Below, piece after piece: positions 4,237 to 43,500 of a stretch of DNA of 64,000 bases. A program made the translations under genes and the position numbers. Source of the stretch: an uncultured Candidatus Saccharibacteria bacterium (GTDB lineage Bacteria > Patescibacteriota > Minisyncoccia > Sungbacterales > JACQCQ01); contig CAZBTX010000001.1 in NCBI GenBank assembly GCA_964494945.1, forward strand, positions 3,088 to 67,087, written 5' to 3'. How positions within the stretch are numbered: position 1 is the first letter of the stretch; every line of letters begins with the position of its first letter. The notes below the pieces were generated by a model. That model did no database searches, was not told where the DNA came from, and saw only the letters and a program-made list of their open reading frames with translations.

Positions 4237-4956
4237 GTGGAATTTGATATGGATGACATCCGTGCCGAAGCATCAAGATTTGAGATAATTGAAAGACGCG
4301 AAAAAAATCGGCGCTTTAAGTGCGCGGCTATGTGGCTTTCCGCCGCCGTTTTTGTCTCCGGCGCCGTTGCCGGAACTTTTTGGTTGGCTAAAAATGAAGG
4401 ACCCGCTGTCACCGCTTCTATTTCCGAGGCCGTGTCGGAAAAAGATTGGTCCAGGGGCTCGCCCGACGCCAGAGCGGTACTGGTTGAATACAGCGATTTC
4501 CAATGCCCGGCTTGCGCGGCTTATTACCCCATGGCTGAAGAACTGCAGAAAGAATTTGGAGACAAGCTTCGTTTTGTGTACCGGCATTTCCCGTTGCGAC
4601 AGCACGCCTATGCTAATTTAACCGCTCGGGCTACCGAAGCCGCCGGCAGACAGGGAAAATTTTGGGAGATGTATGGCATAATTTTTGAACATCAAAAAGA
4701 ATGGGCCGCTTCCGACCAAGCCAGCGAGCTTATGGCCGAATATGCCAAAACCCTTAATCTTGATATGGATAAATTCTCCAAAGATCTGGCTTCGGACGAG
4801 GTGAAAGAAAGAGTGGAGAATAATCTTCAGAGCGGATTGAGTTCGCGCGTGGAAGGCACGCCAACTTTTTTCTTGAACGGCTCAAAAATCCAAAACCCCA
4901 GAAACTATGCTGAATTCAAACAACTTATCACCGAAACTCTCGCCGGCGGTTCTTAA
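4237..4956 (+). CDS. DsbA-family thiol-disulfide oxidoreductase, membrane-anchored thioredoxin fold
   Basis: CPAC active-site motif inside a thioredoxin-like context (FQCPACAAYYP). N-terminal TM anchor. Confidence 0.75.
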   Translation: MEFDMDDIRAEASRFEIIERREKNRRFKCAAMWLSAAVFVSGAVAGTFWLAKNEGPAVTASISEAVSEKDWSRGSPDARAVLVEYSDFQCPACAAYYPMAEELQKEFGDKLRFVYRHFPLRQHAYANLTARATEAAGRQGKFWEMYGIIFEHQKEWAASDQASELMAEYAKTLNLDMDKFSKDLASDEVKERVENNLQSGLSSRVEGTPTFFLNGSKIQNPRNYAEFKQLITETLAGGS

Positions 4957-21400: not shown

Positions 21401-21480
21401 CATATCTAAGGATTCTTGTCAAGGGTCGGAGAATTTAGTAGTATTATTGGGCCTACTTTTAAGCTAAAATCAAATATAAC

Positions 21481-21551
21481 CCTCCCATAGCTCAATGGCA
21501 GAGCAGTTGCCTTTTAAGCAATTGACCTAGGTTCGATTCCTAGTGGGAGGA
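21481..21551 (+). tRNA. tRNA-Lys (anticodon UUU)
   Basis: Manual cloverleaf: acceptor CCTCCCA/TGGGAGG, D-stem GCTC/GAGC, anticodon loop CTTTTAA, T-arm CTAGG-TTCGATT-CCTAG. No encoded CCA. Confidence 0.85.
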
Positions 21552-21559
21552 CAGTATAG

Positions 21560-21596
21560 GGGCCATTAGCATAGTGGCAGTGTCCCGACTTACATT
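21560..21596 (+). pseudogene. 5' half of a tRNA-Ala gene (acceptor, D-arm and part of the anticodon arm), truncated in the anticodon region
   Basis: GGGCCATTAGCATAGTGGCAGTGTCCCGACTTACAT matches 28 of 36 positions of the 5' half of the intact tRNA-Ala at 21970. Its acceptor strand GGGCCAT pairs with ATGGTCC of the 3' remnant at 22055-22095, with a G3:U70 pair. Confidence 0.55.
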
Positions 21597-21684
21597 AATA
21601 AGTTTAATCATAAGAAGTCGCGGATGCTCGATTTTCTTAAGAAAATCGAGCATCCGGTTTGTCCCGATTTATACAAATTTTTAA

Positions 21685-21930
21685 ATGTTTTATCTTTATG
21701 TTTTAAAATCAATTCAATTTGGGACCTACTATATTGGTAGTTGTAAAGATTTGCAGATTCGGCTAAGACAGCATAATAGAGGCAAGGTGAAGTCAACAAA
21801 GTTTCGAAAGCCATGGGAACTAGTACATTCAGAACGATTTATGACTTTATCTAAAGCTCGATCAAGAGAACTAGAACTCAAATCTTTAAAAAAGCGTATC
21901 GCATTGGAAAGGTTGATAAAACATTTCTAA
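21685..21930 (+). CDS. Small GIY-YIG nuclease-domain protein (COG2827/UPF0213-like, YhbQ-type)
   Basis: FYLYVLKS...GTYYIGSCKDLQIRLRQHNRG fits the GIY-(x10)-YIG motif plus the conserved R and HN/E region. It sits between tRNA-gene halves. Confidence 0.7.
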   Translation: MFYLYVLKSIQFGTYYIGSCKDLQIRLRQHNRGKVKSTKFRKPWELVHSERFMTLSKARSRELELKSLKKRIALERLIKHF

Positions 21931-21969
21931 AATTTGTGAAATAAATCGAAGATTCTCGACGGCAGAGGT

Positions 21970-22040
21970 GGGCCCTTAGCTTAGTGGCAGAGCACCCGGT
22001 TTGCATCCGGGAGATAGGAGTTCGATTCTCCTAGGGTCCA
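21970..22040 (+). tRNA. tRNA-Ala (anticodon UGC) embedded in a 13-bp extension of its acceptor stem
   Basis: Manual cloverleaf: G3:U70, anticodon loop TTTGCAT, T-arm AGGAG-TTCGATT-CTCCT. Flanking CGACGGCAGAGGT/ACCTCTGCCGTCG extends the acceptor helix. No encoded CCA. Confidence 0.8.
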
Positions 22041-22054
22041 CCTCTGCCGTCGGA

Positions 22055-22095
22055 ACATCCGGAAGGCGGGAGTTCGATTCTCCCATGGTCCACCA
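22055..22095 (+). pseudogene. 3' half of a tRNA-Ala gene (anticodon-stem 3' strand, variable loop, T-arm, acceptor 3' strand plus CCA)
   Basis: ACATCCGGAAGGCGGGAGTTCGATTCTCCCATGGTCCACCA is highly similar to the 3' half of the tRNA at 21970 and complementary to the acceptor strand of the 21560 remnant. Confidence 0.55.
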
Positions 22096-22096
22096 A

Positions 22097-22130
22097 TCTC
22101 AAAAACGCGCCCGCGGGCGCGTTTTTGAGA
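22097..22130. terminator. Bidirectional terminator TCTCAAAAACGCGCCCGC-GGGCGCGTTTTTGAGA
   Basis: 17-bp perfect palindrome with A/T runs on both sides. Confidence 0.7.
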
Positions 22131-22229
22131 TTGACCTCTGTTGCTCGTTGACGGCCGGTTTTTTGTATGCTATAGCTTGCGAAACGGTTTAAACGCCCTT
22201 TACCAATTTGGGAGAAGGAGAGGTGACCA

Positions 22230-40549: not shown

Positions 40550-43500
40550 TTAACTGCTTGGCGTGGAACTGGCGGTGGCAGTGGTGGATGAGGCGGTGTC
40601 GGTGGTTGAGGCAGCGTCAGCTCCGACGCTAGCGTTCGGAGCCCCGACCCCTTCGGGCGTCAGGGTTGTTGTCGGCGTTGTGATTGTGGTGTCGGTTGAG
40701 TCGGCAGTCGGCGTGGTGCTGGCCGTGTCTGTCGGCGTGAATGAAGCTATGGGGCTTACGTCCGAGATCGGCGGCAAGCCGTCGCAATTTCCCGAAATGG
40801 TGCTGACGGCGCCACGCTCTATGAATACGCAATATGCCGCTTTGGTGGCGCGATCAAAAAGCGTAATGCCGGTCGGGGCTTCAGTAGAGCCGACGGTTAA
40901 GTGGTCGGTTTCGATATACTTCATCGTCATGCGCCCCGTCTCGTCAATTTTCCAAAGGCCGTTTTGCGAGACGATTTGTCCGACTCCCAAGAGGGCATTG
41001 CCGTTTAAGTTCACATCCCCGTAGAAGTTGACATTCACCTTGCCCGTAGTCTGATCCACCGACCAGCCATTAGTCGCTATTCCCTGTTCGCTATTCGCTG
41101 CTAGCTGGGTCGTTCCTTCATCAAGCTTTGAGTAGCCGAGGTTGATGAAAACCAGGATTTTGCCGGTTTTCACCGTCTGGCCGTCGGGAAGTCCGACTTC
41201 GGCGGTGTTTGAAGTCGGACTTCCAACAGTTGAGTCGTCAAAGTTTTCTAGAGCTATACCCACTGTCACGCCGGATACGGTAGCTTTCATGCCTACTCCT
41301 GCAAGCGAGGAGGAAGTTATCCTGTCGCCTATCTTGATGGGGCCGGATTCGGTGGAAACCTTAACGGGAACGCGGCCGTTCAAAGCAACGGGAAGTTTGT
41401 TTATGGTTTCGGGAAGATTCTTTCCTGCCGAGGTAAAATCAGAGTAATTATTTGAGGTGATGCCAAGGAGGTTTGATTGATAAGCGGTAGTGGAACGCTT
41501 AAGTTCGGAAACATATCCCAAGTGAGGCAGGGTGGAACTTGCGCTTCCCTTCTCGTCGCTGGCATAGGTTTCAATCATTTTACTGCCATCTCCCAAAGCC
41601 ACGATCTCGCCGTATTCAATTCCTTGTTCAACCGGATAAAGCTCGGCATAGTCGGCTCCACCGGAAGTGCAGTCGCCGATGCCGCGCAACGCGTCTGCGG
41701 AAAGTTCAGCGCCGCTATAACACATAGCAACGTTAGAAATTTCGTCATCTAGCATGGCCTGCACGGGGTTGCTAGCTGCATTGGCGTCTACTATAAGCCC
41801 ATTAGTCCAGGTGATGGCGTCACCCGCAGTTCCTGATGGCGCCGTGCGAAGAGTTATATCGGCGCCGCTATAATAGATTTGTTGCGCGGGATTTGTAATC
41901 TTATATCTCCAACTTCCGTCGTAGTATATATTTGCGCCAAGTCCCCCATCAACGCTACCAATATTCGTGAGCGAAAGCGTTCTTCCCGCCGAACTATTCC
42001 CAATAACGAGCGCTGGTATAGTCCATCCTGGATCTGAAGGTACGACACCGAGAAATATTTGCTGGTCGGCATTCGGGAGTTGCAAGGTGGGGCCGGCAGT
42101 GTTCACTGTGAGAATGCCATCAGTATCTATTGTCATCCGATAAGCCGCCGCAGTTATATCTCGAATCTGAAATAACCCTGTATCTTGTACACCTACAATC
42201 CAATCCCTACTTGCTTTATTGGAAAATCGTAAACCTACGCTGTTGGTTGCGTCCTGATTCCGTATATTTAATTGAGGCGTACTCGAGTCCAAACTCGACA
42301 TGCCAGAACCAGAAACAGCCAGCACTCCAAACGGACTCGTCGTCCCGATGCCGACGTTGCCGCTTCCATCAATCCTCATCTTTTCTGCCATAGTTGACGC
42401 TGAATTTTGAGTGAAAAACGTAAGTGATCCTGCCGTGCCTCCGACGGCCTCTCGCATCAATCCTATTAGAGCTGCTGGATTACCATTACCAGCGGCGCGA
42501 AACTTAATTTTAGAGCCAGCCCCGACTACGTTAGAGTCGGACAAAAGGTTCAATTCCGTATTATTGTCGTCATAGTATGAAGCCCCGGTCGCTATAGTCG
42601 AGCTTGAAATGTTGAATGTTGCACTCCCCGTATCGCCAGCCGCACTAGTTCCAACCAAAATCCTGCCGTCGCTTCTTATTCGCATACGCTCAGTCGAAAT
42701 ATTAGCGTTATCGGCACGTGTAAAAAACGCAAGGATTCCACCTCGTTTGGTTGCCGTTGTCCCGCTGAGATTAGAGCTGATTCGCGCCACCTCTTTGGAG
42801 AAAGTTCCTCCAGACTGGGCATCTGCGTGAAAAGAAATAACTCCAACATTATCCGCGTCAGCATCAGCGGTAAGGTTGCCGAGCCGCAGGATTCCGTAAT
42901 CGTTCGTAGCATCAAGCACACTAAAGAACGAATTTCCTGAACCATAAGGACTGGTGGTAATTAGCGATGCATCAGCAGCATCACCACTTCCAAAAATACC
43001 GTTACCCACAACCGATAACTTGGAGCCCGGACTCGTCGTCCCGATGCCGACGTTGCCGTTGGGAAAGTTAACGCTCGAAATCGTCGCCCCACTGCGCTTC
43101 ACATTCAGCCAAGAATTGGCCGTGGCAAGGGAATCATTTAATGCTCGAAAATCAAATTCGCCCGCCGTCAGCATCCCTGGCCCAAAATCCCAAATCTTGT
43201 TGTCAGCGGTGGCATTGGTGTTATTCATCACAATGCCGGTGGTCGCCCCCTGGATTTCCAACTTGCCATCATGCCCCGGCCCGATACGCGCCGTGCCTCC
43301 GATCTGCACATCCGCTGTACCAGAACCAGCCGCTTTCAAGATATGCAAGCCAGAGGCCGGATTCGTTGTCCCGATGCCGACGTTGCCGGATGTTTGCTGA
43401 ACCACGAATTGATTTGTCCCCACAGTAAAGCCGCCCGTAGCTATTGTAGAAGTAGCGGTAGTAGAAGTGGCAGAGAAGTTGTTGGAAACAATTTGGCCGG

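Follow-up and report, generated by a model that had tools for sequence, protein, structure and literature searches.

A putative selfish element pairs a minimal GIY-YIG nuclease with a replacement tRNA inside a tRNA-Ala gene of Candidatus Sungbacteria

Here we report that, within a 64,000-nucleotide (nt) stretch of a Candidatus Sungbacteria metagenome-assembled genome (assembly GCA_964494945.1, contig CAZBTX010000001.1, positions 3,088 to 67,087; hereafter the window), a gene for alanine transfer RNA, tRNA-Ala(UGC), is split between anticodon nt 35 and 36 by a 394-nt insert that carries a GIY-YIG nuclease gene together with a second, complete tRNA-Ala(UGC). Sungbacteria belong to the Candidate Phyla Radiation (CPR; Patescibacteria). 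This insert, termed ins2, occupies 21662-22055 of the forward strand, on which all stranded features described below also lie, and reads TTTG|…|CAT across its borders. It consists of hairpin A, which holds the nuclease gene, and hairpin B, which holds the inner, or cargo, tRNA. With moderate confidence, we interpret ins2 as a selfish DNA element that inserted in the resident tRNA-Ala gene, brought its own replacement with it, and would be moved by its minimal Slx1-like nuclease. Comparison of genomes establishes, at the level of sequence, that the insertion took place, that the cargo is foreign and of the same isoacceptor, that ends and hairpins are conserved, that miniature derivatives exist, that invasion was repeated, and that the nuclease is associated with tRNA genes.

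A selfish nuclease-plus-tRNA cassette in a resident tRNA-Ala gene had been proposed in an original prediction made from the letters and open reading frames (ORFs) of the window. It is supported by an empty site in a relative and by recurrence of the cassette with matching cargo at other loci. Beyond that proposal, the analysis revealed a second insert in the same gene, a double-hairpin architecture with conserved termini, miniature copies lacking the ORF, and membership in a large family.

An empty site in a relative defines the resident gene and its two breaks

The empty site was reached through the closest relatives of pyrG, which encodes CTP synthase and lies upstream of the split gene. In the relative L095, whose pyrG protein is 80% identical to that of the window and whose gene order (peptidase-S41 / L9 / pyrG / tRNA-Lys) is the same, tRNA-Lys is followed by an uninterrupted tRNA-Ala(UGC) at 4436-4508 (Rfam, 67.1 bits). 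An uninterrupted tRNA-Ala in a relative had been set beforehand as the decisive observation. Three pieces of the window, when joined, agree with the L095 gene at 72 of 73 positions and are recognized by ARAGORN as tRNA-Ala(tgc).

Piece 1 (21560-21582) represents nt 1-23, that is, the acceptor 5′ strand, D-stem, and D-loop, and matches L095 at all 23 positions. Piece 2 (21651-21661; CATCCGGTTTG), which matches at 11 of 11 positions, contains the end of the D-stem 3′ strand, position 26, the anticodon stem 5′ strand, and the loop up to anticodon nt 35; its TCCGG pairs with CCGGA at 22059-22063. Piece 3 (22056-22095) represents nt 36-76, from CAT through the anticodon stem 3′ strand, variable loop, T-arm, and acceptor 3′ strand to ACCA, and agrees with L095 at 38 of the 39 shared positions. 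These matches indicate that the flanking fragments are real tRNA-Ala sequence and not chance similarity.

The resident gene is broken twice, by a 68-nt insert in the D-arm (ins1) and by ins2 between anticodon nt 35 and 36. Both inserts are absent from L095, and neither duplicated any target bases. No direct repeat flanks ins2, and its flanks join without loss or overlap. The two tRNA-Ala halves placed by the original prediction at 21560-21596 and 22055-22095 are therein confirmed as genuine tRNA-Ala sequence, but 21583-21596 belongs to ins1 and the 3′ piece starts at 22056. Likewise, the claim that both breaks fall in the anticodon-arm region holds for the second (21661|21662 … 22055|22056), but the first is in the D-arm.

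As is to be expected of pieces only 23, 11, and 40 nt long, neither ARAGORN in its intron and lowered-threshold modes nor Rfam at E ≤ 10 called the fragments alone, and ARAGORN in those modes did not call the split gene either; their status therefore rested on comparison with other genomes. Brute-force joining of the originally proposed halves yielded 719 tRNA calls with many anticodons and was uninformative before the true breakpoints were known.

Architecture of the inserts

The plan of the element is 5′-TCCCGA [hairpin A] TCG(N)GGA·TCC(N)CGA [hairpin B] TCGGGA-3′. In ins2 the termini are TCCCGA…TCGGAA, about 80 nt lie outside the ORF and tRNA, and the insert folds as two hairpins when the interiors of the ORF and tRNA are trimmed (z = -16.3).

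The arms of hairpin A, about 35 nt long, run from TCCCGATTT… to …AAATCGAAGA, enclose the ORF, and extend into its coding ends. The left arm, a terminal inverted repeat (TIR; 21662-21694), leads from the end TCCCGATTT into the start codon region ATGTTTTATC and pairs with the right arm GATAAAACATTTCTAAAATTTGTGAAATAAATCGAAGA at 21915-21952, with 31 of 35 aligned positions forming Watson-Crick pairs. As the right arm overlaps the last codons of the ORF (…LIKHF stop), ATAAAACAT, which codes for the C-terminal I-K-H, is complementary to ATGTTTTAT, which codes for M-F-Y in the start region.

Hairpin B has the composition TTCTCGACGGCAGAGGT – tRNA – (A)CCTCTGCCGTCGGAA. Its left arm (TTC TCGACGGCAGAGGT; 21953-21969) abuts G1 of the cargo tRNA and forms 13 contiguous Watson-Crick pairs with 22040-22052, and its right arm, together with the right end of the element (CCTCTGCCGTCGGAA), spans 22041-22055. 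The cargo tRNA-Ala(UGC) itself (21970-22040) has G3:U70 and A73 and, as predicted, is complete according to both ARAGORN and Rfam (68.3 bits); its 3′ end reads ACCT, so that CCA is not fully encoded. The predicted 13-bp helix is also present: CGACGGCAGAGGT and ACCTCTGCCGTCG perfectly continue, and so lengthen, the acceptor stem of the cargo. Helix and acceptor stem together form 20-nt arms that are 95% complementary, with G3:U70 as the sole non-Watson-Crick pair.

The cargo and resident tRNA-Ala are identical at 61 of 71 positions and share the anticodon loop TTTGCAT. Since the 10 differences are mostly compensatory changes in stems (6:67, 12:23, 27:43, and the T-stem), the cargo tRNA appears by its sequence to be a working foreign allele rather than a decayed duplicate. 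This bears on the idea, raised in the original prediction, that the locus is a decayed tandem tRNA-Ala duplication with an unrelated small gene in between. Two tRNA-Ala-like sequences do lie within 540 bp, but the inner one, a divergent allele, cleanly splits the outer, whose pieces can be joined with nothing missing and nothing overlapping, and the same nesting occurs in about 20 unrelated contigs. We assign this explanation a negligible probability; the empty site and the recurrence effectively refute it.

The second insert, ins1 (21583-21650; no strand assigned, boundary ambiguous by 2-3 nt), is a 68-nt double hairpin without an ORF, that is, a miniature copy that is not autonomous. In it, TCCCGAC…GTCG(C)GGA precedes the palindrome TGCTCGATTTTC TTAA GAAAATCGAG(CA), whose 18-nt arms are perfect, and as DNA the insert folds into two hairpins (z = -5.0). 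Its design matches that of miniature copies in the D-arms of split tRNAs at L003, L013, L138, L169, and L176.

A nuclease that consists of the catalytic domain alone

The nuclease gene (21685-21930) encodes 81 amino acids (aa) of the Slx1-like / UPF0213 type. Its assignment in the original prediction as a GIY-YIG ORF between the halves is borne out by Pfam PF01541, which matches residues 1-71 with 53.9 bits (cut-off, 22.6). In 11 homologues (47-100% identity), Y5, Y16, G18, R26, H30, N31, and E62 are invariant, and the profile built from them matches the PDB structures 1zg2 (3e-13) and 1ywl (5e-11), SLX1 chains (about 1e-4), and I-TevI at only 3e-3.

Pfam revealed no second domain in the protein beyond a weak overlapping match to the related family T5orf172. 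Characterized GIY-YIG homing enzymes (I-TevI and SegB) have a separate DNA-binding domain; the module expected of a homing endonuclease was not found in the 81-aa protein, which is the catalytic domain alone. Nor was a recognized transposase of the DDE, HUH, serine, or tyrosine type detected, as Pfam returned only the GIY-YIG domain and NCBIfam nothing above its cut-offs. No ORF of the 394-bp insert other than the nuclease matches a family. An island mobilized by an integrase was considered and rejected, since the insert contains no integrase gene and no direct repeat of the tRNA 3′ part is present.

The element recurs at other tRNA genes with matching cargo

A metagenome scan with a pattern combining the ORF end and the element centre returned 80 loci. 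The same design was found in 21, while the remaining 59 or so are not full elements but chance matches or miniature hairpins at non-tRNA sites. Two Saccharibacteria loci found via the protein, L013 and L014, also have this design. It runs from the old 5′ half across the border into TCCCGATTT, an inverted repeat, the ORF, the other inverted repeat, and AAATCGAGGA, and then through ·TCC(N)CGAT with one arm, the cargo tRNA, and the second arm with ATCGGGA to the old 3′ half.

A cargo tRNA begins 14-22 nt past the central GGATCC at 18 of the 21 metagenomic loci. Occurrence of the cassette at other tRNA genes, a check named in the original prediction, was thus observed, the cargoes being nine Ala-CGC, seven Ala-UGC, one Ser-GGA, and one Thr-UGU. 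At least 18 further loci share the termini TCCCGA…TCGGGA, the insertion position, and a cargo that matches the split gene, and the anticodon of the cargo is that of the split gene wherever both are readable. The 5′ flanks end in TTCG, TTTG, or CTTG and the 3′ flanks start with CAT, CAA, GAAA, or TAAA, with no duplication. Breaks fall at 35|36 (TTCG|CAT, TTTG|CAT or CAA, TTTG|TAA), or at 34|35 in the tRNA-Ser gene (TTG|GAAA). The joined flanks give a callable tRNA with the anticodon of the cargo in L014, L113, L144, and L151; at other loci the halves are truncated or contain further miniature insertions.

The arms of hairpin B reach at least 11 bp in 15 of 18 cargo tRNAs, with two to four Watson-Crick pair types per position and differing sequences. 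For hairpin A, 20 elements with differing arms together have 620 Watson-Crick pairs against 87 mismatches, and fold z-scores of the elements range from -5 to -16. This pattern of covariation indicates that both hairpins are conserved as structures, not as sequences. The tree of the nucleases contains an Ala-UGC clade, to which the window protein belongs, an Ala-CGC clade, and a clade of Ser, Thr, and no-cargo elements, with a few switches. As the tree largely follows cargo type, the gene and the cargo mostly travel together.

At five loci (L014 at 1860-1870, L113, L144, L167, and L169), 7-10 extra nt lie between the cargo 3′ end and the right arm of hairpin B. These resemble the final bases of another tRNA-Ala (…GGTCC, …GAGCCC before ACCA), which suggests that the cargo tRNA within hairpin B has been exchanged by recombination at least once.

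The locus might instead be read at the level of RNA. According to this explanation, which we consider very improbable, the interrupted gene is functional, the double hairpins are a new bacterial tRNA intron or the halves are joined in trans, and the inner tRNA is an extra copy. The old pieces of the window gene are nearly unchanged (72/73 against L095), the insertions are in loops like archaeal non-canonical introns, and position 35/36 is also the favoured site of group I introns in tRNAs of Patescibacteria (PMC13011429). Nonetheless, no group I intron or other non-tRNA Rfam family was detected at E ≤ 10 between 20800 and 22800, even with permissive filters. Whereas a group I intron needs U before its 5′ splice site and a terminal G, the 5′ flank here ends in G (…TTTG) and the insert in A (…TCGGAA). 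A group I intron was rejected on these two grounds, the missing ribozyme core and the wrong boundary nucleotides. Read from sequence, the junctions also appear to lie at the foot of the 6-bp helix of the insert ends rather than in the 3-nt bulges of a bulge-helix-bulge. Every tRNA-borne full copy has a cargo of the same isoacceptor, and older interrupted copies are truncated or decayed. The arms lack an excess of G·U over A·C mismatches (11 vs 8), a count that in itself gives no signal either way for selection on hairpin A at the RNA or the DNA level. The functional split or permuted tRNA gene mentioned in the original prediction is unlikely for similar reasons: relatives have an intact gene, older interrupted copies decay to stumps, and an intact tRNA with the same anticodon lies within the insert.

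Miniature and cargo-less copies mark further target sites

Miniature copies are present in the D-arms of split tRNA genes in the window, L003 (two identical copies, in tRNA-Ile and in an old tRNA-Ala), L013, L138, L169, and L176, and in T-loops between nt 56 and 57 in L122, L138, L169, and L176. The tRNA-borne miniature copies are always in tRNA copies that are already split and never in a cargo tRNA. In addition, autonomous copies whose hairpin B contains no tRNA occupy non-tRNA sites at L002, L116/L123, and L142. The terminal inverted repeats are common to autonomous and miniature copies although their target sites differ. Since miniature and cargo-less copies are not producible by allelic copying, the TCCCGA…TCGGGA unit must enter new sites.

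These copies weigh on the interpretation of ins2 as a homing cassette only, a rather unlikely one in our judgment. By this account, the nuclease would recognize the sequence of the anticodon region and make a double-strand break, and repair would copy the filled allele; the tRNA halves would be its 'exons', the hairpins would serve expression or processing, and the common ends would be shared by descent. Precise, duplication-free insertion at one conserved position of one gene family agrees with homing, as do filled and empty alleles in related genomes, and ORF loss with re-invasion is the usual life cycle of homing genes. In L138 and L144, the old 3′ half beside the junction is identical to the 3′ part of the cargo, as in co-conversion. 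Precedents are SegB in the tRNA cluster of phage T4 (PMC2330249) and mobile ORFs with a foreign gene end in fungal mitochondria (PMC3630166). However, the same termini bound miniatures in D- and T-loops of several tRNA species as well as the cargo-less copies at non-tRNA sites, none of which allelic homing can yield. Further points against homing are that the protein has only 81 aa, all of them catalytic domain, and that the anticodon loop of the cargo is the same as that of the target.

The trait shared by the tRNA target sites is that they are loops or stem-loop junctions of tRNA genes. From these loop positions we infer recognition of folded DNA, which would fit an Slx1-like nuclease that has only a catalytic domain.

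Short double hairpins of 49-62 nt with a TCG(N)GGATCC(N)CGA centre were also seen with no tRNA nearby (L121, L127, L166, and L217), so miniature elements are not confined to tRNA genes. A different mini double hairpin of about 30 nt, TCACCC…GGGTGA·CCACCC…GGGTGG, occurs at anticodon position 35/36 of extra tRNA-Glu copies adjoining GIY-YIG ORFs, namely in L008 (2990-3020 and 3362-3392), L036 (1447-1478 and 1788-1820), L066 (1449-1480), L077, and L179 (past the old 3′ half). This TCACCC type was found once in the T-loop of a tRNA-Ala, and analogous hairpin pairs with other sequences occur in tRNA-Ser (L021), tRNA-Gln (L057), and tRNA-Lys (L102).

A wide nuclease family associated with tRNA genes

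More than 531 relatives of the nuclease are among the matches listed in one-genome-per-species GTDB, and the context counts given here concern the best 80 of them. These come from CPR, Bacteroidota, Ignavibacteriota, Poribacteria, Acidobacteriota, Chloroflexota, Gammaproteobacteria, and other phyla. A tRNA gene on the same strand lies within 150 bp at 56 of the 80 loci, and one on the opposite strand at a single locus, against a background of about 0.045 tRNAs per 300 bp. In all, 18 tRNA types adjoin these nuclease genes. The genes are also flanked by 67 partial tRNA copies, the ends of which cluster near nt 14-22, 34-36, and 52-61, corresponding to the three loops. In IMG/VR (2.9 million contigs), viral relatives numbered only four, all weak, and one of these adjoined a tRNA-Cys.

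Inverted repeats around the ORF were found in only about 20 of 87 loci scored, nearly all of them CPR. The long flank helix is absent from most of the 80 GTDB loci and limited to a CPR subset (the Ala and Lys lineages). Outside the CPR, the layout is mostly 'partial copy – ORF – intact tRNA' or 'intact tRNA – ORF – partial copy', with some of the repeats 100% identical.

These counts also bear on whether another enzyme, encoded by the host or otherwise unlinked, mobilizes a hairpin element in which the GIY-YIG gene is cargo or has a host function in tRNA-gene or repair biology. We judge this improbable. Copies without the ORF are common, and the literature has treated bacterial Slx1-like proteins as repair factors passed on vertically (PMC1564403). 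Yet the feature that stays constant across phyla is the nuclease gene beside a tRNA (56/80) and not the hairpins (about 20/87); the ORF ends are built into the inverted repeat, and the protein phylogeny tracks cargo type.

A second class of CPR elements has the ends CCCCCACACCAA…TTGGTGTGGGGG and variants of these, and is inserted in the acceptor stem or past the tRNA 3′ end with short duplications. It was observed at L086, L063, L088, L069, L062, L074, L081, L038, L072, and L068. In L086 and L063 the unit lies in the 5′ acceptor stem of tRNA-Ala(GGC), where the 5′ end of the tRNA is reconstituted by the run of G at the end of the repeat, and in L072 and L068 the repeat also occurs as palindromes without an ORF. 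At another locus, L037 (224-1476; Poribacteria chromosome OY282444.1), 11 tRNA-like units, repeated in tandem every 107 bp, come after a single tRNA-Pro. ARAGORN assigns no anticodon to these units, which lie directly upstream of a homologous GIY-YIG ORF, with another partial copy past the ORF. The array resembles the product of a local, serial amplification of one tRNA unit next to the nuclease gene.

Repeated invasion of the tRNA locus below pyrG

Traces of earlier insertions are visible in the relatives of the window. In L099 (pyrG 81% identical), an intact tRNA-Ala lies in a 13-bp helix ending …ATCGGAA|CAT and is flanked by 5′ and 3′ remnants of a still older tRNA-Ala; the ORF of hairpin A has been lost at this locus. 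The uninterrupted tRNA-Ala of L095 is itself enclosed in a 23-bp helix, after which comes a 34-nt remnant identical to the 3′ part of the L099 tRNA. The allele split in the window is that of L095. Four generations of tRNA-Ala can accordingly be read, from these sequence relationships, at one locus, and the same nesting is seen in L113.

The neighbouring gene has been invaded as well. In L102 (4100-4640; Sungbacteria metagenome-assembled genome GCA_016181565.1), another and more divergent GIY-YIG cassette interrupts the anticodon loop of the tRNA-Lys(UUU) below pyrG; it contains a new tRNA-Lys in a 17-bp helix with the old halves on both sides. The small tRNA cluster below pyrG is a hot spot for such elements.

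A working model and the points that weigh against it

If ins2 is a selfish element as proposed, a nuclease without a DNA-binding domain would drive its mobility by cutting at positions defined by structure, such as DNA coding for tRNA loops when extruded or single-stranded, and the feet of the hairpins that the element itself forms. The insertion would then be completed by repair or ligation functions of the host. In a manner akin to homing, the gene halves could serve as homology arms, and repair of a break in an uninterrupted allele could copy the cassette into it. An insertion would survive only if its cargo makes up for the single-copy tRNA that it disrupts, and such survival of self-complementing insertions would explain the matched isoacceptor. 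The cassette would be transcribed from the promoter of the tRNA operon, while the long stem of hairpin A might bury the start codon and keep nuclease expression low. After fixation, the ORF would decay, and the cargo tRNA would become the resident gene and the next target.

Several observations weigh against this model. Cutting by the nuclease, its choice of targets, and the joining step are steps that we infer. To our knowledge, GIY-YIG enzymes are hydrolytic nucleases with no strand-transfer chemistry, and the nuclease is therefore not a complete transposase alone. The flanks contain no fixed target motif; the left flank mostly ends in G (TTG, TCG, GTG, TAG, or GAG), and T-loop sites read TTC|GA. 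Self-immunity is unaccounted for, as the anticodon loop of the cargo is identical to that of the target. Most non-CPR members lack the inverted repeats and the flank helix and may move differently. Finally, the data consist of metagenome assemblies only, in which no population-level polymorphism of filled and empty sites was seen for the window element.

In kind, the element would be either a selfish cassette driven by an endonuclease or an element that is bounded by TIRs and has miniature forms. We tentatively raise the further possibility, to which we give less than even weight, of a new class of prokaryotic mobile DNA, namely a double hairpin with an approximately 80-aa nuclease that chooses targets by the shape of nucleic acid, and with defined ends, no duplication, miniatures, and a self-complementing tRNA. 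The chance that the element moves by a mechanism new in kind is appreciable.

Relation to known systems and significance

No description of a bacterial cassette of a GIY-YIG gene and a tRNA was found in the full-text literature, the coverage of which excludes most subscription journals. Elements of the IS200/IS605 family have hairpin-forming ends, cause no target duplication, and give rise to small non-autonomous derivatives. Their HUH tyrosine transposase works by covalent chemistry, and insertion takes place 3′ of a fixed motif of 4-5 nt. By contrast, the element encodes a hydrolytic GIY-YIG nuclease as its only protein and follows no evident fixed motif. Transposons bounded by TIRs resemble the element in their shared termini and miniatures, but the latter has no target-site duplication and no recognized transposase.

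The analogy drawn in the original prediction with free-standing GIY-YIG genes of phage T4 holds only loosely, given a nuclease that lacks a DNA-binding domain and an element whose ends are defined inverted repeats. SegB carries added DNA-binding modules. It is a larger phage protein that cuts a specific site, and its gene sits between intact genes, with no split target, replacement gene, or inverted repeats. What the two have in common is a GIY-YIG gene among tRNA genes, which in T4 promotes its own inheritance along with neighbouring tRNA sequence (PMC2330249).

In function, the nearest parallel by analogy may be the mobile ORFs of fungal mitochondria, which carry a foreign copy of the gene end that they displace, as in atp6 of Allomyces macrogynus and in atp6, atp9, cox2, and nad3 of Glomus (PMC3630166). 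In both cases, a nuclease gene (of the GIY-YIG type in Glomus atp9) enters an essential gene together with a foreign replacement, the native remnant left downstream matches the gene of the closest relative, and the inserted copy is divergent (PMC3630166). The mobile ORFs differ in that they target organellar protein-coding genes and supply, in frame, the C-terminal part only, whereas the element splits a bacterial tRNA gene in the anticodon and supplies a whole tRNA. It also differs from them in its hairpin-forming inverted-repeat ends, its miniature derivatives, and its domain-only Slx1-like nuclease.

In form, the nearest analogue would be the double-hairpin elements of Allomyces mitochondria as these are summarized in PMC2800124: two adjacent hairpins without flanking duplications, in or between RNA genes (Paquin et al., 2000), and co-occurring with a mobile GIY-YIG ORF (PMC2800124). 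Those elements are mitochondrial and have no protein assigned in that summary, whereas the loops of the element described here carry the nuclease gene and the tRNA, and its targets are tRNA loops.

Integrase-dependent islands and prophages likewise target tRNA genes (in the anticodon loop, T-loop, or 3′ end), restore the tRNA, and leave partial copies, but they are 10-100 kb long and depend on a tyrosine integrase and direct repeats of the tRNA 3′ part (PMC9897764). The element measures 394 bp, has neither integrase nor direct repeat, carries a complete tRNA, and leaves both old halves. Group I introns of Patescibacteria occur in the same phylum at the same 35/36 position and sometimes include a homing endonuclease gene; they differ in being self-splicing, 184-894 nt long, and in encoding HNH enzymes if any (PMC13011429), whereas the element restores function by a second gene. 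The Slx1-like / UPF0213 proteins represented by 1zg2 and 1ywl belong to the same family by sequence and are standalone catalytic domains of about 80-100 aa. A 2006 survey of the superfamily considered the bacterial Slx1-like proteins vertically inherited and probably related to repair (PMC1564403), but a large branch examined here behaves as a mobile element associated with tRNA genes.

Our findings offer a concrete role for minimal bacterial proteins that are usually annotated only as 'GIY-YIG nuclease family protein', and account for tRNA gene fragments and hairpin-flanked tRNAs that confuse annotation in CPR and other genomes. They suggest a bacterial counterpart of two kinds of element known only from fungal mitochondria, the mobile ORFs that replace gene ends and the double hairpins. 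They also imply that single-copy tRNA genes of reduced genomes can be serially replaced by foreign alleles, which bears on tRNA phylogeny and on the tolerance of essential genes for mobile DNA. Should the targeting by the 81-aa nuclease be directed by structure, it would be of interest to enzymology and possibly as a tool. Should the elements indeed form a new class, a large share of 'hypothetical' UPF0213/COG2827 proteins would be parasites of tRNA genes, and the elements would drive horizontal turnover of these genes.

Genomic context of the window locus

Upstream of the split gene are genes for peptidase S41, ribosomal protein L9, and CTP synthase (pyrG), and downstream is a gene for a class II aminoacyl-tRNA synthetase; given these housekeeping neighbours, the locus is chromosomal. 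The tRNA-Lys(UUU) gene at 21481-21551 (called by ARAGORN and by Rfam with 73.2 bits) is the upstream gene of the same tRNA operon, lies outside the element, and is identical to the tRNA-Lys gene upstream of tRNA-Ala in L095 and L099. A promoter-like match at 21416-21444 makes it probable that the tRNA-Lys end of the operon supplies the promoter.

At the other end, a perfect palindrome of 20+20 nt with internal A5/T5 runs (22094-22133; no strand assigned), which is host sequence outside the element, is probably the bidirectional terminator of the tRNA operon; having no 3-8-nt loop, it was missed by a simple terminator scan. The sole identical match to the 81-aa protein is on contig JACOYZ010000003.1 of GCA_016181625.1. 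In a second assembly, the contig ends at the terminator palindrome. The orthologue search with the downstream 275-aa protein for an empty site matched only that protein itself.

No other copy of the element was found in the 64-kb window: a third TGTCCCGA lies at 43367 inside a coding region, and three occurrences against 1.65 expected are at chance level. The central motif is not enriched there. GC content is 28-39% over the ORF region (100-nt windows, 21600-21949) versus about 55-65% on either side. The segment 21222-21400, which lies between the stop codon of pyrG and the promoter region of tRNA-Lys, has no Rfam match, and its sequence is not kept in L095; it is GC-rich (about 65%) and forms a long stem, GAGGCGGGA…UCCCGCCUC, with a fold slightly better than those of shuffled sequences (z = -2.35).

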